Shown: positions 867 through 21,358 of the stretch, one piece after another | Layout of the letters: the number at the start of each line of letters is the position of its first letter | Numbering within the stretch: the first letter of the stretch is position 1 | NCBI RefSeq assembly: GCF_000017845.1 | Contig: NC_010546.1 | Location: forward strand, 1,020,001 to 1,052,000 | Length of the DNA stretch: 32,000 nucleotides | Source: Crocosphaera subtropica ATCC 51142 | GTDB lineage: Bacteria > Cyanobacteriota > Cyanobacteriia > Cyanobacteriales > Microcystaceae | Reading direction: 5' to 3' | Notes under the pieces: generated by a model | The model's input: only the letters and a program-made list of their open reading frames with translations | Databases searched by the model: none | What the model was told of the DNA's origin: nothing | Made by a program: the position numbers and the translations under genes

Positions 867-1316
867 ATGAAATGGATCGTTTATGTTGTAATAACTATCA
901 TTGTTTATAGTATTATCATTATTAAACTAAAAGTCAAAACCCAAAGAGAAAAAGTTAGAGAAGCTTACATTTTTTGGAATACTCTAATATTTTTTCTTGT
1001 GTTTGAATTTATTTTTATTGAGTCTATTGTTAGTCAATTTTTATTACATCTTTTTGGTTTATTACTATCCTTTATTTACTCAGTTTCTATCTACCTTTAC
1101 TTAAAATCTATTAGGAAAGATATTGATACTATTTTTTATAAATTATTAGAACAAAGTCATGGTAAAATTAGTATATTAACCTTTATGCAAGCCACAGAAT
1201 TACCTCCCAATAAAGCTCAAGATTATTTAGACAAAAAAATGAGGGAATTAAAAGGTAATCGTCATAGTACCCGTGGTAATATTTATTATGAATTTAGTGG
1301 GTGGCAAAACTATTAA
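867..1316 (+). CDS. Hypothetical small membrane protein (about 3 N-terminal TM helices, soluble C-terminal tail)
   Basis: 149-aa ORF. Hydrophobic segments IVYVVITIIVYSIIII, LIFFLVFEFIFIESIV and LLHLFGLLLSFIYSVSIYL. No motif recognised. Very AT-rich. Confidence 0.4.
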   Translation: MKWIVYVVITIIVYSIIIIKLKVKTQREKVREAYIFWNTLIFFLVFEFIFIESIVSQFLLHLFGLLLSFIYSVSIYLYLKSIRKDIDTIFYKLLEQSHGKISILTFMQATELPPNKAQDYLDKKMRELKGNRHSTRGNIYYEFSGWQNY

Positions 1317-1343
1317 ATGGCTAAATAAAAAATAAATACACTC

Positions 1344-1384
1344 AGCGTTCAGTGTTATAAGAATATAGCTGATAGCTGAACGCT
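1344..1384. terminator. Possible bidirectional hairpin between convergent genes
   Basis: AGCGTTCAG (1344-1352) is the exact reverse complement of CTGAACGCT (1376-1384). The stem is 9 bp and the loop 23 nt, which is large, so this is a weak call. Confidence 0.3.
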
Positions 1385-2610
1385 TATAAACTAGCTAATT
1401 TAATCGAAGGTACAAGATAGGAGTGTGACTTTTCATCCTTTCTAAGAACTTCCTCTATATCATCAATAACTTGAGGATAGTTCTGATGATATCGTTGTTG
1501 ATCAGAACGAATTTTTTTTAGATGTTGATGAATATTATTTTGATTAATAATGACTCCAAAATCTTGAGGAATATTAGCTTTTTTTTGGCGGTTCCTATTA
1601 ACAACTAATTCTATGATCAAGTTACCAACTTCTGGGCGATAGTGGTCGGAATCAATATAGCCTTTTAAATGATATTTCTGATCAACATTAGGAATATCTT
1701 CTGTTGTAATACTATTATAACCAGTAAAATCCCATAAATCAACTTGATTAGATAACCCAAGATTATTATGAGCTTTTTCAATAACATTGACTAAATCTTT
1801 TTTCCATCGTTCAAACATAGGAAACTGGCCAGCAATTCTCATGGCTTCTAAATTTTGTATATGAATAGGAGAAATAAATAAATAGAGTTTAATATTATTT
1901 TCTAAACAATGGCTAACAATATCCTCAAATGCTTTCAGCTGAGACTGTTGGTAGTCAACCCGTTGATAACGAATAAAATTATATCGTAGTTTTTGAGTAA
2001 ACTTTTTTTTGTTAAAAGGTGCAACAGACTTGGTTGTTCTAAACCCTTCAGGTGTATAAACTGCATTAACTTTATTTCCCTTATGATTAAATTGAAATGT
2101 CTTCCAAGAACTGATTAATTGCTGACCAGAAAATACATTTTTGAAGTAGATTTCATATTTTGATTTATTAGCAAATAGTGATGAACTAAAATCTCCACGA
2201 ACACGGGGTTGTCCAGAAAAACTCACAAAATCCAATCCTATAATAACTGATTTAAGAGGTTGAACCTGATGGGAAAATTGAAAAATTCGACCTATTTCAT
2301 ACATATTACTTCCATTTAAACCTGCATTATAAACTTTCTTAGATGACTGTACAGATGAAGGATCTAATCCATTCGCTACTCTTGAAGTTCCTAAAATTAT
2401 AGTATCATAATCGCCTTCCTCTATTTCTATTGACTTAAATTTTCTCAAACCACTTTTGTCCATTAACGGTTTCTGGAAATTAATGTTATCAATTTCTACA
2501 ATACGAAAAATTCCTTGGGGATCAATAATTAAATTGCTAAATATTATGAACAAGGAACTAAAAAAAAACAAAAAAAAGTAGTTTTTCAGATAAGCTTTTG
2601 GAGAATACAT
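1384..2610 (-). CDS. Membrane-anchored DltD-like / SGNH-type accessory protein of the MBOAT (inferred)
   Basis: 408-aa ORF starting 9 nt downstream of the MBOAT stop on the same strand. N-terminal anchor FFLFFFSSLFIIFSNLII. ILGTSRVANG block (candidate Ser nucleophile near residue 75) and C-terminal DSDHY (DxxH-like block). The architecture resembles DltD and SGNH partners of MBOATs. The family assignment is inference. Confidence 0.55.
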   Translation of the reverse strand: MYSPKAYLKNYFFLFFFSSLFIIFSNLIIDPQGIFRIVEIDNINFQKPLMDKSGLRKFKSIEIEEGDYDTIILGTSRVANGLDPSSVQSSKKVYNAGLNGSNMYEIGRIFQFSHQVQPLKSVIIGLDFVSFSGQPRVRGDFSSSLFANKSKYEIYFKNVFSGQQLISSWKTFQFNHKGNKVNAVYTPEGFRTTKSVAPFNKKKFTQKLRYNFIRYQRVDYQQSQLKAFEDIVSHCLENNIKLYLFISPIHIQNLEAMRIAGQFPMFERWKKDLVNVIEKAHNNLGLSNQVDLWDFTGYNSITTEDIPNVDQKYHLKGYIDSDHYRPEVGNLIIELVVNRNRQKKANIPQDFGVIINQNNIHQHLKKIRSDQQRYHQNYPQVIDDIEEVLRKDEKSHSYLVPSIKLASL

Positions 2611-2619
2611 AATTCACTA

Positions 2620-4260
2620 TTAATACTGAAAATAAATAAAAGGTTGTTCTTGATTTAGTGAAAAAAGAGAAATAGCTAACAGAGAAAAACTAATAAACGC
2701 AAAAATTGAACTTGGTTTCCATTGTAATCGTTTCCAAATGTTAGCTTTCCATTGTTTTTTAATTCTGCCAGCATAATAATCAATGGCAGGTTTATATTGT
2801 CCCATCCACTGTTGTGTATTTGGGGTAAATAAAACAACAATTAATAAAATCATGATTAACTGAAGTAACTGAAATATTTCAGAAGGATTAAGATTATTAT
2901 AGATAAAATTAGGCATTAATCCAGAAAATTTGAAACCGAAATTTCCAAGAAAATTAAAATCCTTTTCCAATGAACTCGGTAATGATATTCCATTTAATCC
3001 CAACATACTATGCCACATTGATAAGGTTTGACTCATGGTTTCTGTTCGAGTTAAAACAAGGGCAAACATCCAGGCAGAAAAAGTTAAAAACCAGCTAATT
3101 AATTGACTCCACCAAGGACTATCTTTTAAATTATTACCCTTAGATTTGAGAAAATCACGCCATTGTTGATAAACAATAAAATAGATTCCGTGTAAACCTC
3201 CCCAAGCTAAAAAATTCCACCCTGCACCATGCCATAAACCTGTTATACCCAGACCAATGAAAGCATTAAAGGCTGTTGCTCTCTGTTGTGCTATCTGTCC
3301 CTTTCCCAATGGCCATGTTTTCAAGCAACGGGATAACGGTAAATACAAATAATCTCGGAAAAAACGGGTTAACGTCATGTGCCAATGACTCCAGAATTGA
3401 CTAATATTAGTCGTTTTGTAGGGAGAATCAAAGTTAAGGGGTAATTTAATCCCAAACATTCTTGCTACCCCAATAGCCATATCTGAATAACCCGAAAAAT
3501 CAAAATATAATCGTAACGTATGGGCTAATATTCCTGTCCAAGCTTCTACAAAACTTAGGTGAATATCTTGATTAATAGCACCGTAAATTAAAGAAACATG
3601 AGGAGTTAAATTATCAGCAATAATAACTTTTTTAAATAATCCAATAGAAAAAATAGTCAATCCTACGGAAAAATCTTCATAATCAAATCGAAAAATTTTA
3701 GGACTTTTTAATTGGGGAGAAAGTTCTTTATAACGAACAATTGGACCAGAAATTAATTGGGGAAAAAAGCTAATAAATAAGCAATAATGAATGAGATCAT
3801 GGTCTTTAATTTTACCTTTATAAGTATCCACTAAATAGGCCACCTGCTCAAAGGTAATAAAAGAAATACCTAGGGGAAGAATTAAATTTTTTAATGTCCA
3901 ATTACTTCCTACTAACCCATTGATAGACTCAATGAAAAAGTTAGCGTATTTAAAATAAGCCAGTAATCCCAGATTAAAAACAATTCCTAAAATTAGATAA
4001 AAGCGATCATTAATAACCAGATTTTTAGCTAGTAAAGTCTCAACCTTATTGTTAATAATTCTACCTAAACTATAATTAACAGTCAAAGACCCTAATAAGA
4101 ACATTAAATAAGCTGGATTCCATCTCCCATAGAAAAAGAAGGAAGCAATAATCAACCAAACTAAGGCTATTTTGTGATGGCGTTTTTCTCCTAATTTATA
4201 AAAAATGACTAGGGTTATAGGAAGAAATAAAAAGATAAATTCATAGGAGTTATACAGCAT
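2620..4260 (-). CDS. MBOAT family membrane-bound O-acyltransferase (DltB/AlgI-like)
   Basis: 546-aa polytopic ORF with the MBOAT core FWSHWHMTLTRFFRDYLYLPLS and a conserved His region GLWHGAGWNFLAWGGLHG. Its ATG (4258-4260) overlaps the upstream carrier-protein stop by 11 nt (ATGCTGTATAA). Confidence 0.9.
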   Translation of the reverse strand: MLYNSYEFIFLFLPITLVIFYKLGEKRHHKIALVWLIIASFFFYGRWNPAYLMFLLGSLTVNYSLGRIINNKVETLLAKNLVINDRFYLILGIVFNLGLLAYFKYANFFIESINGLVGSNWTLKNLILPLGISFITFEQVAYLVDTYKGKIKDHDLIHYCLFISFFPQLISGPIVRYKELSPQLKSPKIFRFDYEDFSVGLTIFSIGLFKKVIIADNLTPHVSLIYGAINQDIHLSFVEAWTGILAHTLRLYFDFSGYSDMAIGVARMFGIKLPLNFDSPYKTTNISQFWSHWHMTLTRFFRDYLYLPLSRCLKTWPLGKGQIAQQRATAFNAFIGLGITGLWHGAGWNFLAWGGLHGIYFIVYQQWRDFLKSKGNNLKDSPWWSQLISWFLTFSAWMFALVLTRTETMSQTLSMWHSMLGLNGISLPSSLEKDFNFLGNFGFKFSGLMPNFIYNNLNPSEIFQLLQLIMILLIVVLFTPNTQQWMGQYKPAIDYYAGRIKKQWKANIWKRLQWKPSSIFAFISFSLLAISLFSLNQEQPFIYFQY

Positions 4261-4507
4261 AATTCTCAGCTAAATGTTCAGAAAGTTCTGCAATTGTTGG
4301 ATATTCATACATCAAGGTGGGGTCATCAATTTCACACCCTAACCAGTCTTCTAAATCAGCCATGATTGCGACAATATCAGCGGATTCTAGTCCATATCTT
4401 TCAAATGGAATTCCTGCATCTACTTCATCAAAATTGATATTTAAAGTGTTAGCAACTTGGGTTGTTAACCAGGTATGAATTTTGGTGATATCCATTATTT
4501 TCTTCAA
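4250..4507 (-). CDS. Acyl carrier protein (phosphopantetheine-binding, DltC-like position)
   Basis: 85-aa acidic ORF with FERYGLESADIV (Ser in the GL[DE]S attachment context) and a four-helix-like length. Overlaps the MBOAT start, suggesting translational coupling. Confidence 0.8.
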   Translation of the reverse strand: MKKIMDITKIHTWLTTQVANTLNINFDEVDAGIPFERYGLESADIVAIMADLEDWLGCEIDDPTLMYEYPTIAELSEHLAENYAV

Positions 4508-4541
4508 TAATTTTTAATAACTAAATTGGCTAAATTGGCAA

Positions 4542-5798
4542 TTAAGCAACATCAAAAGTAACAGGTAAAGATTTTAAGAATCGAGTGACCACATTATCAT
4601 GATATTCAACCCTATTAATGGCTAATTGTAAATTAGGTAATTGCTGTACTAAGGTGTTAATAGCAATAGGAACTTCAACACGGGCTAAAGCAGCCCCTAA
4701 ACAAAAATGAATCCCCGTTGCAAAGGCAATATGTTGATTATCAGAACGCAATAAATCGAGTTGATCTGGGTCAACAAATTGCTGTGGATCTCGATTTGCA
4801 GACCCTAAACAAAGAATAATAAAGTCCCCTTGATTGATAATTTTTCCAGCAATTTCTAGAGGTTCTCTTGCTGTTCTGAGTACCAGTTGAGTTGGACTAT
4901 CATAACGAAGTAATTCTTCAACTGCCTTGTTAATTAGGTGGGGTTGCTGTTTCAATAATTCCAACTGATCACGATGATTTAATAGGGCTAATATGCTATT
5001 TCCAATGATACTGGCTGTTGTTCCTTCCCCAGCAGCACCTAACATCATACAACTACTAATAATTTCTGCATCCGTTAGCTTTTCTCCTCCATCTTCTACC
5101 TCCAGTAAGGCTGTAATTAAGTCAGGTTGGGGCTGTTTTCTTTTCTGGTTAATTTGGTGTTGTAAATAATCCCTAAACTCTAGTGAGATTTGATTCATTT
5201 CCTCACATTTATGTAAAGAGTTTAAAGGATCAAAAATGCTAAAAATATCCCTTACCCAACCTCGCACAAAATGCTCATCTTGCTTCGGTAAACCCATCAA
5301 TTTCATCATGACTTTAATCGGTATAAAATTAGCAAAATCAGTGACAATATCAAGGGTTCTTTCTGCTTTCAAAGGTAAGAGTAATTGGTTAGCTATTGCC
5401 TGTATTTCAGAGGCTATTTTTTGTAAGGATTGACCCTTGAACGCCTTGGCTACTAACCCACGCATTCTGGTATGATCAGGAGGATTAAGAAAAAATAACC
5501 AGTGTTGACTCGCTAAAATTAGAGCCTCTAAATCTCTCTCTTTTTTAGCTAGATATTGACTCTTTTTGCGAAAACTGTCAGGCATTGGGGCTTCATCGAC
5601 CCGTGGATCTTTAAGAATAGCTTTAGCATCCGCATAACGAGTAATGACCCATCCGCCTAGCATTCCCCAATGAATCGGATCATGGGTTCGTAAATAATCA
5701 TAATAAGGATAAGGGTTGGCTTTAAATTCGGCATCAAAGGGATTAAATTGATAGGACTGATCTACCTTATTTCGTTCAAGTTGTTGAGTTGGTATCAT
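4542..5798 (-). CDS. Cytochrome P450
   Basis: 418 aa. Heme-thiolate loop FATGIHFCLGAALAR (FxxGxHxCxG), I-helix AAGEGTT, K-helix EELLRY (ExxR). The ATG lies 2 nt after the stop of the upstream FAAL fragment. Confidence 0.9.
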   Translation of the reverse strand: MIPTQQLERNKVDQSYQFNPFDAEFKANPYPYYDYLRTHDPIHWGMLGGWVITRYADAKAILKDPRVDEAPMPDSFRKKSQYLAKKERDLEALILASQHWLFFLNPPDHTRMRGLVAKAFKGQSLQKIASEIQAIANQLLLPLKAERTLDIVTDFANFIPIKVMMKLMGLPKQDEHFVRGWVRDIFSIFDPLNSLHKCEEMNQISLEFRDYLQHQINQKRKQPQPDLITALLEVEDGGEKLTDAEIISSCMMLGAAGEGTTASIIGNSILALLNHRDQLELLKQQPHLINKAVEELLRYDSPTQLVLRTAREPLEIAGKIINQGDFIILCLGSANRDPQQFVDPDQLDLLRSDNQHIAFATGIHFCLGAALARVEVPIAINTLVQQLPNLQLAINRVEYHDNVVTRFLKSLPVTFDVA

Positions 5799-5800
5799 GG

Positions 5801-6976
5801 TTAAATTCGGTTTTTTCCTAATGCTGGATTAGTAATGGTTTCTGTTAGTTTATGCAAGGTATTCTCTAAATATTGTTGTCGGCAAGCTTGACGTTGAATT
5901 TTTCCACTAGAAGTCTTGGGAAGACTACCAGTTTGAATGAGGATAAGATCATAAATCAGTAAATCGTATTCTCTCATCACCGCTTGACAAATATCTCCAA
6001 CAACTTTGTCAAAATCTAGTTTTTTTCGATAGCTTCGTTCTACCTCCTGAACAATAATTAATTTTTCAATTCCATCAACAGCAACAGAAAACGCTGCACC
6101 ACAATTTGGCCGTAATGCTGCATTACTTTGAGCGACGGTTTCTTCAATATCTTGGGGGTAATAATTCTCTCCTTTGATAATGAGAACATCTTTTAAGCGA
6201 CCGGTAATAAACAATTCCCCATCTTTGATAAATCCTAAATCCCCTGTCCGTAAAAAAGAACCTTGCTTACTATCAGCAAGATAAGCATTAAAAGTGTGTT
6301 GAGTTGCTTGCGGTAAATTCCAATAACCTTGAGCAATACTATCACCAGAAACCCAAATTTCTCCTACTTCATGGGGTAAACAAAGAGTCAAAGACTGGGG
6401 ATTAACAATAACAATATGAGTATTTAACCAAGGATAACCACAACTGACAAATTGTTTACTTTTGATGGTTGTTTCTGTGGCTTTTTTAACTTTATTTTCT
6501 CCTAATGCTTCTGTATCTAATTGATACTGAGTGGGTGGTTTATCCCGATAGCCACCTGTTACCATTAAGGTTGATTCAGCTAACCCATAACAGGGATAAA
6601 AATACTTAGCTTGGAACCCAGAAATCTCAAAGGCTTCTGTAAATTGTTCTAAGGTTTTTGCCCGAATGGGTTCAGCCCCATTATAAGCAGTTTTCCAACG
6701 ACTTAAATCCAACTTTTTGCGTTGTTCAAGAGAGATTTTATTAACACATAAATCATAAGCAAAATTAGGTCCGCCACTATGAGTCACACCGTAATTAGAA
6801 ATTGCTTTTAACCAATTAATGGGTCTGCCTAAAAACGCAATGGGTGGCATCAAAATCCCTAAAATACCGCTATAAATAGGTTCTAAAATGCCATCAATTA
6901 ACCCCATATCATGAAAATGAGGTAACCAACTCGCTGATACATCTTGTGAGGTTAATTCAAACCTTTGTTGAATATA
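5801..6976 (-). pseudogene. Fatty acyl-AMP ligase (FAAL), 3' portion, separated from its 5' portion by an IS insertion
   Basis: The reading frame is open from 6976 (YIQQRFELTSQDVSASWLPHFHDMGLIDG...) to the stop at 5801-5803. Adenylation-domain motifs: GYGLAEST, FLRTGDLGF, GRLKDVLIIKGENYYPQDIE, SSGKIQR. There is no start codon or promoter of its own apart from the internal Met at 6907. Confidence 0.85.
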
Positions 6977-6984
6977 TAGCTAGT

Positions 6985-8036
6985 CTAACTGAATCGTGAA
7001 AAAGCCTCGTAGTTTTTAAAATTAGGAAGATTGAATAGTTTCAACTCAACAAAAAGTTGAAAAAGACGTTTAACAATTTTAAAATTTTTCCCAAATCTAT
7101 AAAATCTTCTCAGTAAAGTTTTGAGTTGTAACCAAATTGCTTCTACGGGATTTTCTTGAGGGGAATAAGGAGCAAAAAGACAACAGGTTACTCGCCATTC
7201 TTCTGGTGACAAATCTTGATTTTCTCTAGCTAAAAACTTTTGCATTTCTTTTCCTCTATGATAACTGGCTCCATCCCAAATCCATAAGGTTTTAGCTTCG
7301 GGATTTTTTTTCTGTAATTGTTGGACAAAATCTACCGTGTTTTTTCCATTTCCTTTTTGATAAGGAAGCAAAATAAATTCTTGAGTTAATAAATTTAATG
7401 CCCCATAATATGTCTGTCTTTCTTTAGGATTTAAAAGAGGAATTTTTAAGGGTTCTTTTATTAAGTTCCATAGATATCCGCAAATATCCTCCCAGTGAAG
7501 ATGACATTCATCAACTATATACACTATCAGCTTTCCTGAATCTATTTCCTCTCGTCTATTTTCCAGAATTTGCGCTATTTCTTGGTTTTTTTTTGAGTGA
7601 CTTCTTCATGATATCTAGGATTAATTTGTTGCCCCTTTTGCCAAGAAATTTTCGCCTCTTTTAAAATCTTATAATAACTTTGAAGAGATTGATAAACCAC
7701 ATCATATTTCTCAATTAGATAAACTTCTAGTTCAGAAATATCCCAGGTTTTTTGTTCAATTAGCCACTCAATTATCTCGGTACGTTCTTGATTTGTTAAG
7801 TAACTTTTACTTCCTTTGTATCCTGATTTTAAACCATTTATACCCCCAAAATTAAAAGCATTAACCCATTTACTAATAAATCCTAGTGACACAGATAAAA
7901 TTTCTGAGACTCTTTCATAACGATAGCCTTCTAGCACTAACTTTACCGCTAAAGCTCTTTGAGTCTCTCTCCCGTTTGATGAATTTTCAAGAAACTCTTT
8001 AATTAGCTCAATTTTCTCCTTATTGTCTATTATCAT
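6985..8036 (-). CDS. IS630-family DDE transposase in two frames (orfA 7575-8036, HTH; orfB 6985-7524, DDE), joined by a predicted -1 frameshift
   Basis: orfA is helix-turn-helix-like (RALAVKLVLEGYRYERVSEILSVSLGFISKWV). orfB carries a DDE triad context: IVDECH, WIWDGASYHR, APYSPQENPVEAIW. orfB is in the -1 frame relative to orfA, and that frame opens immediately 5' of an A9 run. Confidence 0.8.
7586..7594 (-). other. Candidate -1 programmed ribosomal frameshift heptamer A_AAA_AAA
   Basis: T9 on the plus strand is A9 in the transposase sense. In the orfA frame the codons read CAA AAA AAA ACC, so A AAA AAA is in the X_XXY_YYZ phase. The -1 frame has a TGA just upstream and then reads SKKNQEIAQILENRREEIDSGKLIVYIVDECH into orfB. 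Confidence 0.55.
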
Positions 8037-8117
8037 GAGTTTGTTTCTTTTTGAAATTACTCTTTTAATTTTACCTAAACAGAGCTTTTTTTATTCACGA
8101 CTCATTTAGAAACGCTA

Positions 8118-8749
8118 TATCGGCAATTATGCAAAATATTTCCATGACTCACCATCACCCCTTTTGGTTGTCCCGTAGAACCGGAAGTATATTGGAGTAA
8201 CGCTAAGGTGTTTTGATTAATCTCCCTAGAAACTGGAACAGGTTCGGAGGTTTCGGGTAAATTATCACTTGTCAGCCAGGATAAAACCGATAATTCTCGA
8301 TTATCGGTGAATCTTCGTTCAATTTGGGGAAAAGCTTCGGTGGTGGATAAGCCGATTTTTACCTCAGCATTGGCAATAATGGCTTTAATGCGATTGATGG
8401 AACGGTTGGGACGGGGAGGATACAAGGGAATAGCAATCACTCCAGCATAAAGACAGGCAAAAAAAGCGATAATAAAATCTAGTCCGGGGGGATAAAGAAG
8501 TAATATGCGATCGCCAGATTGAGTCAAGTTTTGGAGATAAACGGCTAATTTTTGCGCCTGTTGGTCTAATTCTTGATAAGTTAACCTGCTAGATTCATTT
8601 TTGCCATTTTGCAGGAAAATAAAGGCAGTTTGTTTAGCCTGATAATTTGCCCTATATTTAATCAGATCAATTAAAGAAGTCCAGTCTGAATGGTCAGAAG
8701 ACTCGGTCAATGACGAAATCTTCCATTCTTGGGATACACTACTCAACAT
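8118..8749 (-). pseudogene. Fatty acyl-AMP ligase (FAAL), 5' portion, truncated by the IS insertion
   Basis: The ORF starts at 8749 and contains LTYQELDQQAQKLAVYLQ and the A3 core LLQYTSGSTGQPKGVMVSHGNILHN. After codon TAT (8117-8119) it runs into the IS end and stops at 8102-8104 (…CRYSVSK*). Confidence 0.85.
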
Positions 8750-8998: not shown

Positions 8999-9026
8999 AA
9001 CGGGGAACGGGGAACAGGGAACAGGG
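8999..9026. repeat. Tandem heptamer repeat (AACGGGG x2, AACAGGG x2), STRR-like
   Basis: Direct reading gives AACGGGG AACGGGG AACAGGG AACAGGG in the intergenic region upstream of the FAAL operon. A related array lies at 19879-19909. Confidence 0.7.
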
Positions 9027-9158
9027 TTTATTTTGACTGTAACTGTTTAAAAATTGATTTTCTTTCTTTTGTTCTTGAGTTTTATTGTGCTGGTGCAAGA
9101 TATCAGTTAAAAAAATAAAAAAAGAAATGAAATAGAGATATCTCCATATCTCAACCAT

Positions 9159-10346
9159 CTATCTTAAAATGTTCACGCTTCCTAGAAATTGGTCAATCTT
9201 TTGCACAGCGAGTTCCAAGATATCAGGATCATGAACTAAAGCAAATCTCACATAACCTTCCCCTTGTTTTCCAAACCCCGCCCCAGGAGACACAGCAACC
9301 CCTGTGGCTGCTACTAATTCGGTACAAAATTCAACGGATTTATTTTCCCAAGCTTGGGGTAATTTTGCCCAGACATACATGGTCGCTTGAGGGGGTGTAA
9401 CGTGCCAACCGATGTTATGTAAAGCTTTAATAAAAGCATCCCGTCTGGTTTGAAACCGTGTGACTGTTCTTTCAACCGTTGTTTGATCCCCGTTTAAAGC
9501 TGCGATCGCCCCGTTTAAAATACCTCGATATTGATTAAAATCTACTACTGCTTTGACTCGTCTTAAGGCTTGAATAATCTCTAGGTTACCGATGGCATAA
9601 CCAATACGAAAGCCACCCATATTATAGGATTTAGACAGGGTAAAAAACTCAATGGACAAAGATTTTGTGGGATCAGCCTGTAAAATTGAAGGGGGTTGAA
9701 CCATTCCCTCGAAAACAATATCAACGTAGGGAAAATCGTGAACTAATACCAACCCATGCTCTTGACAAAACGCCACTGCTTGCTCGAAGAAACCTAATGA
9801 AGCCGTTGCGGTAGTGGGGTTATGGGGATAACTCAACACCATCATTTTAGCTTGCTCTAACACTTGGGAAGGAACATCCGCAAACACGGGTAAAAAGTCA
9901 TTTTCTGCCAATAATGGCATCGGATAAATTTGACCCCCGGCCAGATACACACCCCCGGCATGGGAAGGATAACCCGGATCAAGGAGTAAGGCAAAATCCC
10001 CTGGATCGAGCAAGGCAAGGGGTAAATGTGCGGTTCCTTCTTGGGAACCAATGAGGGTTAAGACTTCGGTATGGGGATCAACCTCAACCCCAAAGCGTTT
10101 ATCGTACCATTGGGCTACCGTTTCCCGAAATTTCAAAGTTCCGTGGTGGAGGAGATAGCCGTGAGTGGAGGGATCTTCAAGGGAAGATGCGATCGCTTTG
10201 ATGGCCTCTTGATCGGCGGGTAAATCTGACGATCCCAAGGATAAATCAATAATAGTTTTGCCGTTGCTGATGGCTTGAGACTTAGCCCTATCCATATCAG
10301 CAAAGACATTTTTTTCTAAAGCTTGAAGACGGTTAGCAAAGTGCAT
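9159..10346 (-). CDS. Class I/II PLP-dependent aminotransferase (AspC/alanine-aminotransferase-like)
   Basis: 395 aa. SYPHNPTT (NP motif), TLSKSYNMGGFRIGY (PLP-lysine motif SxSK). Contains two HIP1 sites. Confidence 0.85.
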   Translation of the reverse strand: MHFANRLQALEKNVFADMDRAKSQAISNGKTIIDLSLGSSDLPADQEAIKAIASSLEDPSTHGYLLHHGTLKFRETVAQWYDKRFGVEVDPHTEVLTLIGSQEGTAHLPLALLDPGDFALLLDPGYPSHAGGVYLAGGQIYPMPLLAENDFLPVFADVPSQVLEQAKMMVLSYPHNPTTATASLGFFEQAVAFCQEHGLVLVHDFPYVDIVFEGMVQPPSILQADPTKSLSIEFFTLSKSYNMGGFRIGYAIGNLEIIQALRRVKAVVDFNQYRGILNGAIAALNGDQTTVERTVTRFQTRRDAFIKALHNIGWHVTPPQATMYVWAKLPQAWENKSVEFCTELVAATGVAVSPGAGFGKQGEGYVRFALVHDPDILELAVQKIDQFLGSVNILR

Positions 10347-10420
10347 GGTTGTGATTATTTCGCAGAAAAGGGAGATGAGAGGATCACAATAAGCGATAAA
10401 ATCCTCACCACCTCACTGTT

Positions 10421-10747
10421 TTAGTTAAGATGTTTTTTAAGCATCTCTTCTAGTTGTTGTTTTCCGATCGCCCCTTCGTGTTCGGCCAACAGTTGTTTAT
10501 CCTTAAACAGTCGTAAAGCAGGAACCCCCTCTACTTTGCATTTTGTTCGTGACTCCGGGTTAGGATCAACCTCTAATTTAACCACTTTGAGACTATCGCC
10601 GTAGCTATCAGCAATTTTATTAATGGAAGGAGACACCAAACGACACGGACCACACCAAGAAGCCCAGAAATAGACTAATACAGGAGTTTCAGCCTCAAAC
10701 ACTTCTGTATCAAATTGAGGATCTGTAATTTCGAGAACACTACTCAT
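10421..10747 (-). CDS. trxA: Thioredoxin
   Basis: 108 aa with the active site WASWCGPCR, and typical thioredoxin length and layout. Confidence 0.9.
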   Translation of the reverse strand: MSSVLEITDPQFDTEVFEAETPVLVYFWASWCGPCRLVSPSINKIADSYGDSLKVVKLEVDPNPESRTKCKVEGVPALRLFKDKQLLAEHEGAIGKQQLEEMLKKHLN

Positions 10748-10864
10748 AAGTTTAGTTATCAGTGATCAATGATTCCGTTACCAGTTAATAGCTTACAAGT
10801 TCGGCCAATTTCTTCAACTGGGTTTTCTTGACTTTTGGGGCAATAATGGAAAATACTAATGGTT

Positions 10865-11641
10865 TTAAAGATTATCCAGTTGACGGCGTAAGTCATCTAA
10901 CTCTGCATCAACCACTTCGTCTTTAGGAGAGGCTTTATCCTCTTGGGTCGATCCTTCTGGTAGGGCCCCTTGGGGTTCGGCTGATCCGGTCATTTGGGCT
11001 TTAAGCATGGCCAGTTCATCTTCGACACCGCTTCCGGCTTCGAGTTCAGCAAATTGATGTTCTAAACTCGAGCCCCCTAATTCTCCCACGGCTTGCGATC
11101 GGGCTTCCATATCTAATACTTTGTTTTCCATGCGTTCAAAGGCGGCCATGGAACCACTGGTATTGAGGCCACTCATGGTGGACTGTAGTGCTTCGTTCGC
11201 TTTAGCAGCCTTAGACCTGGCGATCAGCATATTTTTCTTAGTCTTCGCTTCAGAAATTTTGCTTTCTAGGGCTGTCAGGTTACGGCGCATGGTTTCAATT
11301 TGTCCGCTTTGTTGCTCTAGTTGTTCTTTGAGGGTTGTCGCTGTCTCGGTGTAAGATTTTTTCCGAACTAAGGCTTCTCTGGCTAAGCTTTCTTCCCCTT
11401 TAGAGAGGGCTAATTTTGCCCGTTGTTCCCAGGTATTGGCATCTTTAAGGGCTTGTTTATACTGTGCTTCGGTTCGTTTTTGGGAAGCCAGAGTTTGGCC
11501 GAAGGCTTGTTTTAATTGGATCAAGTCTTCACCCATATCCATGATGGTTTGTTCTAAGACTTTTTCTGGATCTTCTGCTTTGCTAACCAGATCGTTGAGG
11601 TTGGCTCGGACCACTCGGCCTAGGCGATCAAATAATCCCAT
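10865..11641 (-). CDS. vipp1: Vipp1 / IM30 (PspA family with C-terminal extension)
   Basis: 258 aa. PspA-type N-terminus MGLFDRLGRVVRANLNDLVSKAEDPEKVLEQ, long coiled-coil body, and a Vipp1-type C-terminal extension ending VVDAELDDLRRQLDNL. Confidence 0.85.
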   Translation of the reverse strand: MGLFDRLGRVVRANLNDLVSKAEDPEKVLEQTIMDMGEDLIQLKQAFGQTLASQKRTEAQYKQALKDANTWEQRAKLALSKGEESLAREALVRKKSYTETATTLKEQLEQQSGQIETMRRNLTALESKISEAKTKKNMLIARSKAAKANEALQSTMSGLNTSGSMAAFERMENKVLDMEARSQAVGELGGSSLEHQFAELEAGSGVEDELAMLKAQMTGSAEPQGALPEGSTQEDKASPKDEVVDAELDDLRRQLDNL

Positions 11642-11798
11642 AATACTGTTTATCCTCTTGGTGTGTACAAGGTTGAGTTTAAGCTGTCAAGTTAAAATAA
11701 CGTTGTTATGCTCTTTAAGTGAGACATTCTTGTATTCTAGTTTATCAAAGAGAAGACAGCAGTTAGGAGTTAAGCGTTCGGAGTTATCAATTTTTTCC

Positions 11799-13022
11799 CT
11801 AAACTAATTTGATAAACTTCTTTTTACCCACTTGTAAAACTTTACCTGAGAGTTGTTCTAAGTCCTCAAAAGTGATATTAACATCAGTGATTTTTTCTCC
11901 ATCTAAACGCACTGCACCCCCTTGTATTTGTCGTCTCCCTTCTCCACTACTTCCACACAGTCCACTGGCATTTAAAATATAGAATAATTTGGCTGGAAAT
12001 TCGACATTGGATAAGTCGTATTCGGGAACAGCATCTGTTACCCCCGTCCCTTTATTTTTTACTAAATCTTCTGCGGTTTTTTGTGCGCTTAAGGCTGCTT
12101 CCTTTCCGTGAAATTGAGTAACAATTTCAATGGCTAATAACTTTTGACAGTCCCTAGGATTTTGGGGTAATTGATCTAGGGGTAAGTTAGTTAAGAGTTC
12201 AAAATAGTCTTTAATAATGGCATCGGGGGTTTTTTCTAGTTTAGAATACATGGACAACTCATCTTCTTTTAACCCTACATAGTTATTGAGAGATTTTGAC
12301 ATTTTTTGACTACCATCTGTACCGAGTAAAATGGGTAATAATAATCCGAATTGAGGCTTTTTACCAAAATGTCTTTGTAAGTCTCTTCCTACAGCAATAT
12401 TAAACTTTTGATCCGTTCCCCCTAATTCCACATCTGCATCGATCATCACCGAATCATAGCCCTGCATTAAAGGGTAGAGAAATTCATGAAGAAAAATAGG
12501 ATTTTCTTGTTTATAACGTTCAGCAAATCCTTCTTTAGCTAACATTTGTCCGACGGTCATTGTGGCTAACAGTTCTTGAATTTTGGCCAAATTCAACTCT
12601 TTTAACCATTCCGAATTATAGCGAATTTCTAATCTGCCTGGGGTGTCAAAATCGAGGATAGGACGAAGTTGTTCTAAATAATTTTCTGCGTTATTTTTGA
12701 CTTCTTGAGGGGTTAATTGTTTACGGACTTCTGATTTACCCGTGGGATCACCAATTTGTGCGGTAAAATCTCCAATAATTACCACTGCAGTATGACCTGC
12801 ATCTTGAAACCCCCGTAACTTCCGAAAGGGGATACTATGCCCCAGATGTATATCGGTTCCAGTGGGATCAATTCCTAATTTAACTCTCAAAGGACGATGA
12901 CATTGTTCGATTAATTTTTCTAAGTTTTCTTCGGGGTTCTTAGAGTCAGGTTGACTGGGAAAAATTTCACTGGTTCCTCGATATAACCAATTCAAAGAGT
13001 CAGGGGTAATTACTGAGGACAT
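11799..13022 (-). CDS. tyrS: Tyrosine--tRNA ligase
   Basis: 407 aa. HIGH-type motif DIHLGH, KMSKS motif present verbatim, and a C-terminal S4-like RNA-binding tail ([13 protein letters not shown]). Confidence 0.92.
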
Positions 13023-13712: not shown

Positions 13713-14147
13713 ATGAGAGAACTTGACCGAGAAAAAACCAATGACATTCTCAACACCATTATGGAATATGAATTAGCGGGTGTTGTTCGCTATACTCATT
13801 ATTCTTTAATGGTTACAGGCCCTCATCGTCTTCCTATTGTACAATTTTTTCAACAACAGGCTACAGAATCTTTGCTTCATGCTCAACAAGTGGGAGAAAT
13901 CCTAACAGGATTAGAAGGCCATCCTAGCTTAAAAATTGCCCCGATGGAAGAGACGAACGAGCATAGTTTACACGCCATTCTTTTAGAGAGTCTCAATCAC
14001 GAAAAAAAAGCCTTAGATTTATATAAGGATCTCCTAGAAGTGGTGGAAAATGCTAGTATTTATATCGAAGAATTTGCACGGGGAATGATTGGACAAGAAG
14101 AAGTTCATAACATAGAATTGAAAAAAATGTTACGGGATTACGTTTAA
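13713..14147 (+). CDS. Bacterioferritin-like (ferritin-like di-iron four-helix bundle) protein
   Basis: 144 aa. Bfr-like blocks EYELAGVVRYTHYSLMV, ATESLLHAQQVGEILTGLEGHP and GQEEVHNIELK (ExxH). Sits next to an iron permease. Confidence 0.6.
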   Translation: MRELDREKTNDILNTIMEYELAGVVRYTHYSLMVTGPHRLPIVQFFQQQATESLLHAQQVGEILTGLEGHPSLKIAPMEETNEHSLHAILLESLNHEKKALDLYKDLLEVVENASIYIEEFARGMIGQEEVHNIELKKMLRDYV

Positions 14148-14255
14148 TCAAACCGAAGCAACTTAAAGAGTAACCTAGACAAGATGTCTGGGTTACTTTA
14201 GAAAATAAACAAAAAATTCTATAATGAATAGGTAATCAATAAGCTCGTGTAAATC

Positions 14256-15182
14256 ATGGATTTCAGTGCTGCATTACCGACATTTGTTGTGACTTTACGA
14301 GAAGGATTTGAAGCATCCCTAGTAGTAGGGATTGTCTTAGCTTGTTTAAAAAAAGTTGAACAAACGCAACTCAATCGTTGGGTATATCAAGGAATTGGAG
14401 GAGGAATTGTCGCCAGTGTTTTGGTGGGATTTTTATTAGGAGGAATCCTCCAAGGCGTAAATACTTATCAAAGTCCTTATACCCCGATTATCAAAGAATG
14501 TTTAGCCACATTATTTGGAATCATAGCTGTGGCAATGTTAAGTTGGATGCTCATTTGGATGACCCAACAAGGAAAGCAGTTAAAAGGAGAAGTGGAACAA
14601 GGAATTGAAGCAGCCTTAACTGGAGAAAATGGCGCAGAAAAAGGAATTTTCTTATTAGTCTTTATTGCAGTTTTGCGAGAAGGCTTTGAAACTGTTTTGT
14701 TTATCATTGCTAAATTTGAAAACAGTTGGAAAATTCCCAGTATCGGAGCAACTTTAGGATTACTCACCGCAGTTATTTTAGGATTTCTTCTCTTTAAATT
14801 AGGGGTTAAAATTAATATTCGTCTCTTTTTCAAAGTGATGGGCGTTTTCTTATTATTAGTAGTAGGAGGATTAGTATTAGGAGTCCTTAAACATCTTAAT
14901 TTAGTAGTGATGTTTTTGGCCCAACTAGAACCCAGTTTTTCTCAATGGTGTTGGGTTCCTGGGGACTCATGTATTTTAGGTCCTTTGGTTTGGGATGGAT
15001 CAGAGATTTTACCCGATAAAACCTTTCCAGGAATTATTCTAAAATCTCTGTTTGGTTATCGACAAACCTTATATTTAGGACAAATCGTAGTTTATCTATT
15101 GTTTTTGTTGATTGTAGGAAGTTTCTATTTCAAAAGTTTATCCAGTTCCACTCCTTCTAAATCAGCAGAAAATGTCAGCTAA
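14256..15182 (+). CDS. FTR1-family high-affinity iron permease (EfeU-like)
   Basis: 308-aa polytopic protein with two REGFE (RExxE) iron-binding motifs: TLREGFEASLV and VLREGFETVLF. Confidence 0.85.
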   Translation: MDFSAALPTFVVTLREGFEASLVVGIVLACLKKVEQTQLNRWVYQGIGGGIVASVLVGFLLGGILQGVNTYQSPYTPIIKECLATLFGIIAVAMLSWMLIWMTQQGKQLKGEVEQGIEAALTGENGAEKGIFLLVFIAVLREGFETVLFIIAKFENSWKIPSIGATLGLLTAVILGFLLFKLGVKINIRLFFKVMGVFLLLVVGGLVLGVLKHLNLVVMFLAQLEPSFSQWCWVPGDSCILGPLVWDGSEILPDKTFPGIILKSLFGYRQTLYLGQIVVYLLFLLIVGSFYFKSLSSSTPSKSAENVS

Positions 15183-15305
15183 TAAAAGACAATCTCTAAA
15201 AAAATTGCTAAGCTAACTTTATGACGAAAAATGAGTCAAAAGCATCCGCTTTCTCAAGGAATCGTTCATCAATTTAACGCTGGTGATTAGGAGAGTAACC
15301 TACCC

Positions 15306-16895
15306 ATGAGTTCATGGACTTGTGATGGAGTCCCCAAAGACGGTAAACAGTATCCTGGGGTATCTCCCCACACCCCCCAAACAAACACTGGCCCCGACTG
15401 TATTATTTGTGGCTTACCCAAAGAAGCCATGGAACCCAGTCAAGGAGAAAAGCAAAAGCCAGGTAAAACCGTTATGGCAGGAAGTTCTGGCAGTGGTAGC
15501 CCCTCATGGCTTATTCCTGGGATTATTGCCGTTATTATCATTATTTTGGGCGGTGGGTTGGCTGCTTTCTTCTTGCTTAAAGAGAACGATCAAAGTATCA
15601 ATACTCCGACTCCTTCTCCCTTACCCACAGAAACTACTCCTACTCCTACCACTGGAGAGTCTGTTAGCCGAGGAGACAAACTTTTTTTACAATCAACCCC
15701 CAATAAACAAGCAGGGGCCGACGCATTTGCCCAGGAAAACTGGCCGGGGGCTGTAACCGCCTACGCAACAGCAGTCCAAGGCGATGCCAATGATCCCGAA
15801 AGTCGTATTTATTGGCAAAACGCCCAAGCCAAGCAAGCAGGAAACCCCCTAACCATCGCCGTTGCTGTTCCTACCACCAGTAGTCCCGACTCAGCGGCCG
15901 AAATTTTGCGAGGGGTAGCTAAATATCAAACCGAATATAATCAGTCTTCGGCTTCAGGGCGACTGTTAGAAGTAGCGATTATCGATAGTAGTGACCCCAC
16001 CACTGCCCCCAATGTTGCCCAAGAAATCATCAATACTCCCGATATTTTAGGCATTGTCGGGTACGGCATCGATCCAGGGAGTCAAGCAGCCCTGCAACAG
16101 TACGAAAATGCAGGGGTTGCGGTTTTATCGCCCCTTACCAGTAGCTTTCAAGACTCAACGCTGAAAACCATTCCTATCAATGAAAAAGAAGACGAATTAT
16201 TAGTTAATTATTTGCAAGCAGTAGGGAAAACCTTAACCCAGTATGCAGCGCAACAGCAACCGTCTCCCAACATTGCTATTTTTTATAATTCTGATAGTGG
16301 TTATAGTCAACAATTACAACAAGAAATTATTAATAGTTTGCCCGAAGTTCAAGGCAATTTAATCGAACAAATTGATATTAGTTCCCCTGATTTTGATGCC
16401 AATAGTGCCGTTACTAACTTACAAAATAGTGGCGCAAATGTAGGGATTTTAGCCTTGAGTCAAAATAAAGTGTCACAAGCCGTAGAAATAGCTAAAGCGA
16501 ATGAAAATAATGGTTCTCCTTTACTATTAATGGGAGGGGATGAACTGTATAACGCCGATATTTTAGTTCAAGGGGGAGATGCGATCGCAGGAATTATATT
16601 AGCGGTTCCCTGGAGTTTTAGCCCCACGGATGACTTTGCTCAAGATGCCCTGCAAAGTTGGAAAGGACGAGTTAGTTGGCGTACGGCTACCGCTTATGAT
16701 GCGACTAAAGCTTTAGTCGAAACTGTGAGCAAAAATCCCGATCGCACGATGATATTTCAGGCATTAAGCAACGGTATTACCCTCTCTGATAGTACCACCG
16801 ATTTTAATTTATTTAATGAAGTCCCTTTAGTGAAAGCTGTTCAAGGAAATGAGGGTCCAAAAGGGTCAAATTATCAATTCGATCCTTTGAAATAA
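15306..16895 (+). CDS. Membrane-anchored periplasmic-binding-protein type 1 (LivK/ANF-receptor-like) protein with a Cys-containing N-terminal cytoplasmic segment
   Basis: 529 aa. AGGAG lies about 10 nt upstream of the ATG. N-terminal segment WTCDG...CIICGLP, then a TM helix (WLIPGIIAVIIIILGGGLAAFFLL), a Pro/Thr linker, and a roughly 350-aa alpha/beta domain with PBP1-like blocks (LTIAVAVPTTS, GIVGYG, VAVLSP, LLLMGGDEL). The family call is moderate. Confidence 0.55.
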   Translation: MSSWTCDGVPKDGKQYPGVSPHTPQTNTGPDCIICGLPKEAMEPSQGEKQKPGKTVMAGSSGSGSPSWLIPGIIAVIIIILGGGLAAFFLLKENDQSINTPTPSPLPTETTPTPTTGESVSRGDKLFLQSTPNKQAGADAFAQENWPGAVTAYATAVQGDANDPESRIYWQNAQAKQAGNPLTIAVAVPTTSSPDSAAEILRGVAKYQTEYNQSSASGRLLEVAIIDSSDPTTAPNVAQEIINTPDILGIVGYGIDPGSQAALQQYENAGVAVLSPLTSSFQDSTLKTIPINEKEDELLVNYLQAVGKTLTQYAAQQQPSPNIAIFYNSDSGYSQQLQQEIINSLPEVQGNLIEQIDISSPDFDANSAVTNLQNSGANVGILALSQNKVSQAVEIAKANENNGSPLLLMGGDELYNADILVQGGDAIAGIILAVPWSFSPTDDFAQDALQSWKGRVSWRTATAYDATKALVETVSKNPDRTMIFQALSNGITLSDSTTDFNLFNEVPLVKAVQGNEGPKGSNYQFDPLK

Positions 16896-19944: not shown

Positions 19945-21291
19945 CTAATGATTAGTCACAATTCTAAAACCTGCGTGTTGATAGAAGTTAGGACGGAACC
20001 AATTACGATAATATTTTAAGGTTTCTGTTCCTTGAGTTACCCAAGCCCCTCCTAACATCATTTTATGGTTATTATCAAAAAAGGGTGCGGAATTATCTTC
20101 ATAGAGAAAATGGGGTTCAAATCCTGGTAAGGGATGAAAATTTTCGTCTAACCATTCCCAAACATTCCCCCGTAAGTCCCATAGTCCCGAATGACTTTGG
20201 GCTGTTTTGACTAACCCTACTGGACTAGGGGAACCGAATTTTAAATTGAGATTATAATCATTAACTTTTTCGATGTCTACTTGATAGTTATCATTTGATC
20301 CATAGGCTGCTAAATTCCATTCTGCTTCACTCATTAGTCTTGTTCCTTTGCCTTTCCAACCACAATAGGCCATGGCTTCATAATAATTAACTTCTACGGG
20401 CCAATCTAAAGGTAATGGTATTTCATCAAACATAGCACGATAGGAATATTTACCATTATTGAATTGCCAAAACTTAGGATTTTTGACTTTGTTTTCTTCT
20501 TTCCATTGCCAAGATTTTTCGTTCCAATAGGATTGAGTTTCGTAACCTTTACGATTGATAAATTCGAGAAACTCTCCATTAGTGACTAAATATTGACTAG
20601 CAAAAAATGAATCAACTTTAACCAGGCGATCGCCATATTCACAGTCCCATCCATATAAAGGATTATCTTTAGCTTTACCTAGTGTAACGGTTCCTCCCTC
20701 TACTAAAATCATCTTATTTGTATTAGGAACTCCCTGAGAAGGTGCATATTGCCATCCTTGCGGTTTTTCCACTTTTTCTGTGGGAAGTTGTCTTAATAAC
20801 ATCGAAGAGGTTTCAAAATGAATTCGTTGATGTTCCATCCCCATCATCAAAGCCCAAAGGGGATGACTGGCATGGATAGGAAGGTCGAAAGTCGTATTTT
20901 TGATAACTTCTAAAATCACCTCATAAGCTTTATTTCGATAGTCCCAAACTTGCCTAACATCTGGCCAATTAATATGAGCGATCGCCTGATTTAATTCTTC
21001 TGCATTTTCGGGATCAACTCCAAATTCAAATAAAATTTCATAATCTGAATTAATCCCTTTTTCTAATAACTCAACTCGAATTAATTTATTAATATAAAAA
21101 GCAGCAGAATGACCTAAATAAAAAATTAAGGGATTCCTTAAGGGATCAGGATTAATATAAAATGTTTCATCATCTATAATACTCCTCATCAAAATGTTTT
21201 CTAATTCCCAACTATTTTGAAAGTAATTTATGACGGAATCTTGAGTACAATTATTAAGAAAAATCGGTAATTGAGATTTAATGAATGACAT
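19945..21291 (-). CDS. egtB: Sulfoxide synthase, OvoA-N-terminal-like (DinB-like plus FGE-sulfatase domains); probable ergothioneine EgtB
   Basis: 448 aa. DinB-type metal-site blocks PLIFYLGHSAAFYINKL and MGMEHQRIHFETS. FGE-sulfatase-type block LWDLRGNVWEWLDE. No C-terminal methyltransferase domain. Located directly downstream of egtD. Confidence 0.8.
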   Translation of the reverse strand: MSFIKSQLPIFLNNCTQDSVINYFQNSWELENILMRSIIDDETFYINPDPLRNPLIFYLGHSAAFYINKLIRVELLEKGINSDYEILFEFGVDPENAEELNQAIAHINWPDVRQVWDYRNKAYEVILEVIKNTTFDLPIHASHPLWALMMGMEHQRIHFETSSMLLRQLPTEKVEKPQGWQYAPSQGVPNTNKMILVEGGTVTLGKAKDNPLYGWDCEYGDRLVKVDSFFASQYLVTNGEFLEFINRKGYETQSYWNEKSWQWKEENKVKNPKFWQFNNGKYSYRAMFDEIPLPLDWPVEVNYYEAMAYCGWKGKGTRLMSEAEWNLAAYGSNDNYQVDIEKVNDYNLNLKFGSPSPVGLVKTAQSHSGLWDLRGNVWEWLDENFHPLPGFEPHFLYEDNSAPFFDNNHKMMLGGAWVTQGTETLKYYRNWFRPNFYQHAGFRIVTNH

Positions 21292-21358
21292 ATAATATAC
21301 TTAATTAAGGGATACAAATGATAGGAGCATAATTAATAATACTCCTATTAACTATAAC

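Follow-up and report, generated by a model that had tools for sequence, protein, structure and literature searches.

A five-gene cassette of Crocosphaera subtropica ATCC 51142 that may pass carrier-bound fatty acyl groups to a membrane-bound O-acyltransferase and an SGNH/DltD-like partner

The bacterial membrane-bound O-acyltransferases (MBOATs) that act with SGNH-fold partners have so far been associated only with the transfer of acetyl groups (to peptidoglycan, alginate or cellulose, or to secondary cell-wall polysaccharide) or of D-alanine (to teichoic acids). These paired MBOATs carry a C-terminal FxYxxF hexapeptide (PMC12148441), the tyrosine of which is auto-acylated in PatA and then serves as donor to the SGNH partner (PatA/PatB study, 2025; PMC12148441). 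In the Dlt system, the FxYxxF motif is located on a separate microprotein, DltX, and the MBOAT/SGNH pathways other than Dlt have no carrier protein, because they use acyl-CoA (PMC12148441). Here we analyze a locus of the cyanobacterium Crocosphaera subtropica ATCC 51142 (formerly Cyanothece), contained in a 32,000-nucleotide stretch of contig NC_010546.1 (positions 1,020,001 to 1,052,000; hereafter the window, with positions counted from its first letter), which encodes a fatty acyl-AMP ligase (FAAL), a cytochrome P450, an acyl carrier protein (ACP), an MBOAT and a 408-aa SGNH/DltD-like protein. To judge from its gene content, the locus contradicts the view that no carrier protein operates outside Dlt, and it is best read as a hybrid of Dlt carrier feeding and the fused shuttle of the PatAB/AlgIJ type, with a fatty-acyl donor. 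We estimate at roughly 60% the probability that the five genes constitute a single mobile cassette for membrane-spanning, carrier-fed acylation of an extracytoplasmic acceptor, most probably a polysaccharide.

The open reading frame (ORF) positions place five operon-like genes, all on the minus strand, between 1384 and 8749 of the window, in the order FAAL (split), P450, ACP, MBOAT and 408-aa protein. From FAAL to P450 there are 2 nt and from P450 to ACP 34 nt; the ACP stop and the MBOAT start overlap by 11 nt, and 9 nt separate the MBOAT from the last gene. These results agree with the gene content, order, strand and 2-34 nt gaps or overlap reported in a preliminary description of this DNA made from the sequence alone. 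The motifs quoted in that description (LLQYTSGSTGQPKGVMVSHGN, FLRTGDLGF, GENYYPQDIE, GTSR and DSDH) are all present, and the profile searches that it had proposed, with Pfam and NCBIfam, assign AMP-binding/FAAL, p450, PP-binding and MBOAT to the first four genes, leaving the 408-aa protein without a Pfam match. The features of the locus, in the direction of transcription, are as follows.

8118-8749, minus strand: 5' fragment of the FAAL gene, codons 1-210 plus 2 nt (AMP-binding, 3.2e-37; FAAL NCBIfam models)
6977-8117, minus strand: insertion sequence of the IS630 family, 1,141 bp (NF033545 transpos_IS630, helix-turn-helix, DDE_3)
5801-6976, minus strand: 3' fragment of the FAAL gene (AMP-binding and AMP-dom_DIP2-like; FAAL families to 1.5e-89)
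4542-5798, minus strand: cytochrome P450 of the CYP107/BioI type, 418 aa (PF00067, 6.6e-26)
4250-4507, minus strand: stand-alone ACP, 85 aa from a TTG start (PP-binding, 1.6e-12)
2620-4260, minus strand: MBOAT acyltransferase, 546 aa (PF03062, 7.2e-25)
1384-2610, minus strand: SGNH/DltD-like transferase, DUF1574-related, 408 aa (AlphaFold2 model with Foldseek search; conserved residues)

The ligase gene is cut by the insertion sequence, and in-silico deletion of the element together with one TA yields a FAAL of 601 aa, the length also of the intact orthologue at locus L001, with a junction (HNCRY/IQQ) identical to that of the uninterrupted Crocosphaera genes at L001 and L007. The best PDB match of the rebuilt protein, over its full length, is 7R7E-G (E = 3e-177 for 7R7G), the FAAL domain of a polyketide synthase (PKS) of Picosynechococcus PCC 7002 (PMC11837247), to which it is ~58% identical by eye; the next matches are Legionella FAAL 3KXW (1e-135), FadD23, FadD32 and EcFAAL. 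PRK05850, FadD21, FadD32 and PRK12476 are the top NCBIfam matches of full-length type. Both the C-terminal subdomain and the region of the FAAL-specific insertion fall in the 3' fragment (ORF 6907-5801); the insertion region (residues ~350-395) aligns to 7R7G with a single gap of three residues, and every cassette orthologue retains it. DltA models reach only 53-60 bits on the N-terminal fragment, compared with cut-offs of 476-560 and far below the FAAL models, and amino-acid adenylation models of NCBIfam also score far lower than FAAL models on this ligase. The earlier identification of the enzyme as a FAAL, and not as a D-alanine or amino-acid ligase, is thus borne out. This FAAL would feed the cassette ACP, whose gene lies two genes downstream in the window and directly downstream in the P450-less cassette L172. 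A FAAL with an ACP of its own, and beside it a P450 that presumably oxidizes the tethered chain, is likewise seen in cyanobacterial starter modules, including olefin synthase, puwainaphycin PuwC/PuwJ and CylA/CylB (PMC10088813); unlike in those modules, the acyl-ACP of the cassette would go to an MBOAT-SGNH pair and not to a ketosynthase or condensation domain of a PKS or nonribosomal peptide synthetase (NRPS).

The P450 contains both the heme-ligand motif FxxGxHxCxG (FATGIHFCLG) and the I-helix sequence AGEGTT. Its best solved relative is BioI (CYP107H1), matched over the full length in the acyl-ACP complexes 3EJB/3EJD/3EJE (5.6e-80; ~38-40% identity by eye), with PksS nearly equal. BioI binds acyl-ACP and oxidizes the tethered chain; unlike BioI, the cassette P450 has no biotin-gene context, no biotin gene being present in the cassette, and it shows moderate identity, with PksS nearly as close. 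Homologues at 54-91% identity sit in the same type of cassette, and those at ~47% identity adjoin a FAAL-ACP fusion heading a PKS/NRPS in Nostoc flagelliforme (L089). In cyanobacteria, chains loaded by FAALs are known to be tailored by P450s (PMC10088813). The position of the P450 between ligase and carrier, pointed out in the preliminary description, is kept in L001, L007, L087 and L088 and lost in L172, where the gene is missing altogether, so that the P450 appears to be an optional tailoring gene. The ACP likely starts at an ATG at 4495 and bears its phosphopantetheine serine within a GLES motif conserved among cassette ACPs. The NCBIfam model closest to the cassette ACP is that of the Pks13 N-terminal ACP, to which the FAAL FadD32 delivers its acyl group.

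The MBOAT scores 191.9 bits with the DltB equivalog model TIGR04091, under its cut-off of 375, and matches DltB 6BUG in the PDB (5e-32), DltB being the sole solved homologue. Two histidines that do not vary within the cassette clade, His294 (WHMT) and His344 (WHG), align with WHMS and WHG of DltB. Relative to DltB, the protein has ~140 extra residues at its C-terminus, which ends in FIYFQY (F541-I-Y543-F-Q-Y; codons 2623-2640), with Tyr543 invariant in the cassette clade. The pattern F[LIVE]Y[FY]x[FY] ends 61 of the 62 MBOATs that adjoin relatives of the 408-aa protein, the sole exception being an ORF cut short by a contig end. As the motif forms the C-terminal end of the MBOAT itself, a separate DltX microprotein would not be required, and among the ORFs listed for the cassette no small one with an FxYxxF motif was noted. 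A fused FxYxxF MBOAT directly followed by a periplasmic or transmembrane (TM)-anchored SGNH partner is likewise found in PatA/PatB, AlgI/AlgJ/AlgX, WssH/WssI and PatA1/PatB1 (PMC12148441); unlike this type, the cassette operon encodes a FAAL and an ACP, with the ACP gene overlapping the MBOAT gene, and its SGNH partner belongs to a DUF1574-related family and not to AlgX, DUF459 or DHHW. Close homologues of the MBOAT are named either 'AlgI' or 'DltB' in databases. No protein 100% identical to it was returned by a search of a collection of 5.8 billion proteins, the top match being 87% identical.

Searches of PDB sequences with the 408-aa protein, both single and profile, returned only noise, and a fold search was therefore needed. 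Its AlphaFold2 model, based on a 25-sequence alignment, has a pLDDT of 90.4 and a pTM of 0.89, and an N-terminal TM helix is predicted at residues 4-29. In a Foldseek search of the PDB with this model, the first eight matches were DltD structures (3BMA, 7DXM, 6O93, 6PFX), with probabilities of 0.98-1.00, followed by SGNH esterases. Across the 25-sequence alignment, Ser76 (GTSR; codon 2383-2385) and His323 (codon 1642-1644) do not vary, and position 320 holds either Asp or Glu in every sequence. Ser76 and Asp320-x-x-His323 (DSDH) probably correspond to the block-I serine and block-V DxxH signature, making Ser76 the putative nucleophile. The model, the order of the Foldseek matches and the invariant Ser76 and His323 agree with the SGNH/DltD-like fold that had been anticipated for this protein. 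Four of the 25 aligned relatives match DUF1574 (PF07611, clan CL0264), with E down to 8.8e-8, as does a paralogue at L054 (31.6 bits, cut-off 29.1); the window protein itself is unmatched and is best described as a member of a DUF1574-related family. DUF1574 is one of five SGNH-clan families without a known function (PMC9487903), and the family of the 408-aa protein comprises 9,363 representatives at E <= 1e-3 in a library clustered at 50%. At 359 aa, the public protein for this gene (P0001) accounts for 88% of the ORF, and its deposited start appears to lie too far downstream, so that the family-conserved N-terminal TM anchor is dropped.

A scan of GTDB species representatives with a 15-sequence subset of the 25-sequence alignment identified 179 relatives of the 408-aa protein, 86 of whose loci were examined. 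An MBOAT is present in 62 of the 86, in nearly all of them immediately upstream in the same orientation. The full order FAAL-P450-ACP-MBOAT-SGNH, with an intact FAAL, occurs at L001, L007, L087 and L088 amid unrelated flanks, which settles in favor of the preliminary description its expectation that the genes would be syntenic in related genomes. L001 and L007 are Crocosphaera metagenome-assembled genomes (MAGs), in which identity to the window is 82-91% for the first four genes and 69-72% for the SGNH protein; the faster divergence of the latter could reflect changing acceptor specificity or relaxed constraint. The P450 is 60% identical to that of the window in L087 and 54% in L088. Two further loci (L019, L057) show P450-ACP-MBOAT-SGNH and then a contig end. 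At L172 (169-11957), FAAL-ACP-MBOAT-SGNH lies without a P450 amid six GT2 genes and one GT4 gene, and this setting is the strongest contextual hint of a glycan acceptor. Relatives of the MBOAT-SGNH pair also sit within polysaccharide clusters at L005 and L006.

A sensitive iterative search found an ACP near only eight of the examined loci. One of the ACP-linked loci, L064 (1865-11113), from a Geopsychrobacteraceae MAG, encodes in one direction a B12-radical-SAM protein, a FAAL, a radical-SAM protein, an ACP, a carbamoyltransferase, an MBOAT and an SGNH protein, and is by its gene content an apparent analogue of the cassette outside the cyanobacteria, with other tailoring enzymes. A neighbor-joining tree groups the MBOATs of the FAAL/P450 cassettes in a single clade; two more ACP-linked MBOATs, one of them from L064, fall outside the large clade without ACP. 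FkbH-ACP-MBOAT arrangements lie within glycan clusters at L006 (4211-11248) and L127 (4832-8572), a DUF1574-like SGNH protein being present in the former and none detected in the latter; they suggest a second carrier-protein-fed MBOAT system, possibly for glyceryl-type acylation of polysaccharides. Bare ACP-MBOAT pairs were seen on several metagenomic contigs. A metagenome scan with an alignment of cassette-clade MBOATs gave, among the matches listed, only general AlgI-like MBOATs of <=45% identity and no new cassette. The closest relatives of the 408-aa protein outside cassettes are those of Okeania/Dapis (38-43% identity), among which the SGNH genes of L008 and L012 look split by a stop or frameshift. 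Other arrangements include two tandem DUF1574-like SGNH paralogues behind one MBOAT (L054, 8384-12330; L115, 1601-5484) and an alternation of SGNH and MBOAT genes with an additional AlgX-like protein (L145).

From these gene identities, motifs, fold and synteny, we infer the following sequence of chemical steps. The FAAL would adenylate a free fatty acid, probably of medium to long chain, and load it as a thioester onto the dedicated ACP, where the BioI-like P450 may oxidize the tethered chain, by in-chain or terminal hydroxylation or, less likely, by C-C cleavage to a diacid. The acyl-ACP would then dock on the cytoplasmic face of the MBOAT, whose histidines would catalyze acyl transfer to its own Tyr543 in the FIYFQY tail. 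At the outer face, the tail would hand the acyl group to Ser76 of the SGNH/DltD-like protein, which would in turn esterify an extracytoplasmic acceptor, most probably a hydroxyl of a surface polysaccharide or exopolysaccharide. A glycan is the likeliest acceptor because all characterized MBOAT-SGNH pairs modify glycopolymers and because relatives of the cassette pair sit in glycan clusters.

The scheme resembles Dlt in that an adenylating enzyme would load a small dedicated carrier, from whose phosphopantetheine arm the MBOAT would take the acyl group, and in that, by analogy, an acyl-tyrosine of the FxYxxF motif would shuttle to a TM-anchored transferase of SGNH fold. Unlike Dlt, the cassette has a FAAL as its ligase and not DltA, a carrier that resembles FAAL-partner ACPs and not DltC, an MBOAT under the DltB cut-off with its shuttle motif fused, a 408-aa protein without a DltD Pfam match and a P450, and its host is a Gram-negative cyanobacterium without teichoic acids. 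The initial reading of the locus as Dlt-like has to be refined, since the MBOAT carries the fused FxYxxF of the PatA/AlgI type and there is no separate DltX. The eukaryotic MBOATs HHAT, PORCN and GOAT offer an analogy, in that a fatty acyl group held as a cytosolic thioester is carried over the membrane to a far-side substrate; unlike the proposed cassette system, they use acyl-CoA as donor and acylate proteins directly, with no SGNH partner or tyrosine shuttle.

Several observations weigh against a carrier-fed acylation cassette of this kind. The matches between the 408-aa protein and DltD have TM-scores of only ~0.35 and E of 5e-4, so that only the core fold is common to the two, and the protein itself has no Pfam or NCBIfam match, the DltD family PF04914 included. 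Most members of its family pair with MBOATs that lack a nearby ACP, from which it follows that the ancestral donor was probably acyl-CoA, and it is from gene linkage alone that we infer ACP use by the cassette clade. At the Okeania/Dapis loci (L002, L008-L012, L026), no MBOAT lies within 10 kb. The cassette includes neither a phosphopantetheinyl transferase gene nor a ferredoxin gene, and no glycan-synthesis gene of the window is demonstrably linked to it. To our knowledge, bacterial MBOAT-SGNH systems carry only acetyl or D-alanyl groups, and passage of long acyl chains is known only for eukaryotic MBOATs.

A separate question, concerning the state of the strain and not the nature of the cassette, is whether in C. 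subtropica ATCC 51142 the genes, acquired horizontally as an island, are now in decay and without function. We consider this quite likely, and it is compatible with a functional reading of the intact orthologues. The FAAL reading frame (ORF 8749-8102) enters the IS630 element and stops at 8102, and the interruption probably blocks the pathway in this strain at its first step, FAAL loading, leaving the cassette probably inactive. The element, present as a single copy within the window, has duplicated its TA target (8118-8119 and 6975-6976) and bears terminal inverted repeats of 24 nt that are imperfect. Its transposase is encoded in two frames, orfA (8036-7575, helix-turn-helix) and orfB (7524-6985, DDE_3), and because of this split NF033545 matches each of them under its 100-bit cut-off. 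A run of ten A residues lies just before the end of orfA (7575-7610), and orfB goes on in another frame, an arrangement that is consistent with programmed frameshifting or a frameshift mutation alike. Over the cassette, G+C content amounts to 29-38%, against 42-44% for the housekeeping genes that flank it at 9-12 kb; over the distal half of the cassette (window 1000-5000) it is 29-34%, compared with 42-44% at 9000-12000. Together with the Tn3 transposase, resolvase and integrase that adjoin the cassette at L001, this lower G+C content points to horizontal mobility and suggests that the cassette is a horizontally acquired, mobile island. As regards decay, however, the other four ORFs are intact with their catalytic residues present, and since excision restores a perfect frame, with a junction as in the orthologues, the insertion looks recent; moreover, the interrupted gene could be complemented by a second FAAL, or by some other supply of acyl-ACP, encoded elsewhere in the genome.

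A different account of the intact cassettes keeps the enzymes together and changes the acceptor, which would be a lipid or some small molecule (such as a glycolipid of the membrane, peptidoglycan, a lipoprotein or another hydroxy-fatty acid), so that the product would be an acylated lipid or a secreted lipid natural product. FAAL-ACP-P450 modules do typically start cyanobacterial lipid natural products, glycan genes are missing next to four of the five complete cassettes, the polymer that DltD acylates is itself lipid-anchored, and the faster divergence of the SGNH gene would fit changing acceptors. This account is nonetheless unlikely, given the seven glycosyltransferase genes around the cassette at L172, the glycan clusters that house MBOAT-SGNH relatives at L005 and L006, and the fact that every characterized bacterial MBOAT-SGNH pair modifies glycopolymers (PMC12148441; PMC9487903).

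Chance adjacency, in which FAAL, P450 and ACP would make an oxidized acyl-ACP for use elsewhere (such as BioI-like pimeloyl-ACP for biotin, or a natural-product starter) and the MBOAT and SGNH protein would form an acetyl-CoA-dependent polysaccharide O-acetyltransferase such as AlgI/AlgJ or PatA/PatB, could explain why BioI is the best PDB match of the P450, why some databases label its homologues 'pimeloyl-[ACP] synthase', why most MBOAT-SGNH pairs of the family have no nearby ACP and why the fused shuttle motif is one typical of acyl-CoA-using systems, but it is very improbable in view of the five-gene order kept amid unrelated flanks down to 54% P450 identity, the 11-nt overlap of the ACP and MBOAT genes, the separate clade of the cassette MBOATs, the persistence of FAAL-ACP-MBOAT-SGNH without a P450 at L172 and the independent origin of ACP-MBOAT adjacency with other loaders (FkbH at L006 and L127, FAAL plus radical-SAM at L064). 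As far as we know, moreover, BioI needs neither a FAAL nor a private ACP.

The preliminary description had drawn attention to a glycosyltransferase beside the cluster, and a GT4 gene (79-807) is indeed present; it is convergent, though, and not conserved beside other cassettes. We rejected it as a conserved partner, as it is 30% identical to the GT4 of L172 and none lies beside the other cassettes. A 149-aa TM ORF (867-1316) was also rejected as a cassette part, since it has no homologue in any fetched locus. Elsewhere, at 19945-22366 on the minus strand, a gene with an FGE-sulfatase domain (448 aa) adjoins a gene with the histidine-specific methyltransferase domain Methyltransf_33 (335 aa, E = 4e-122), a pair that we take to be EgtB/EgtD of ergothioneine biosynthesis. 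A probable iron-uptake and storage locus at 13713-16895, on the plus strand, encodes in a row a ferritin-like protein, an FTR1-family iron permease and a protein with a periplasmic-binding-protein domain.

Within the library of papers open to our search, we found none joining a FAAL with an MBOAT, nor one describing a cluster of MBOAT, ACP and SGNH genes, and neither a 2025 review of FAALs (PMC11837247) nor a 2023 review of cyanobacterial fatty acids (PMC10088813) mentions MBOATs or polysaccharides. We tentatively propose, at somewhat less than even odds, that the cassette is the first bacterial MBOAT system found to export a fatty-acid-derived acyl group from an ACP, via an acyl-tyrosine, onto an extracellular glycan, and that it is one of a wider carrier-fed class. 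If so, some cyanobacteria would possess enzymatically lipidated exopolysaccharides, or diacid-esterified ones should the P450 cleave the chain, and envelope acylation chemistry would extend to lipid-like groups. Fatty-acid-bearing polysaccharides have been reported chemically as bioemulsifier-type polymers, and the cassette would provide a genetic basis for them. It would also belong to an unrecognized class of carrier-protein-fed MBOAT-SGNH systems, with FAAL, FAAL plus radical-SAM, or FkbH as loaders, and would tie the FAAL natural-product modules of cyanobacteria to cell-surface biology, with the 408-aa protein as a functional handle on a very large uncharacterized SGNH family.

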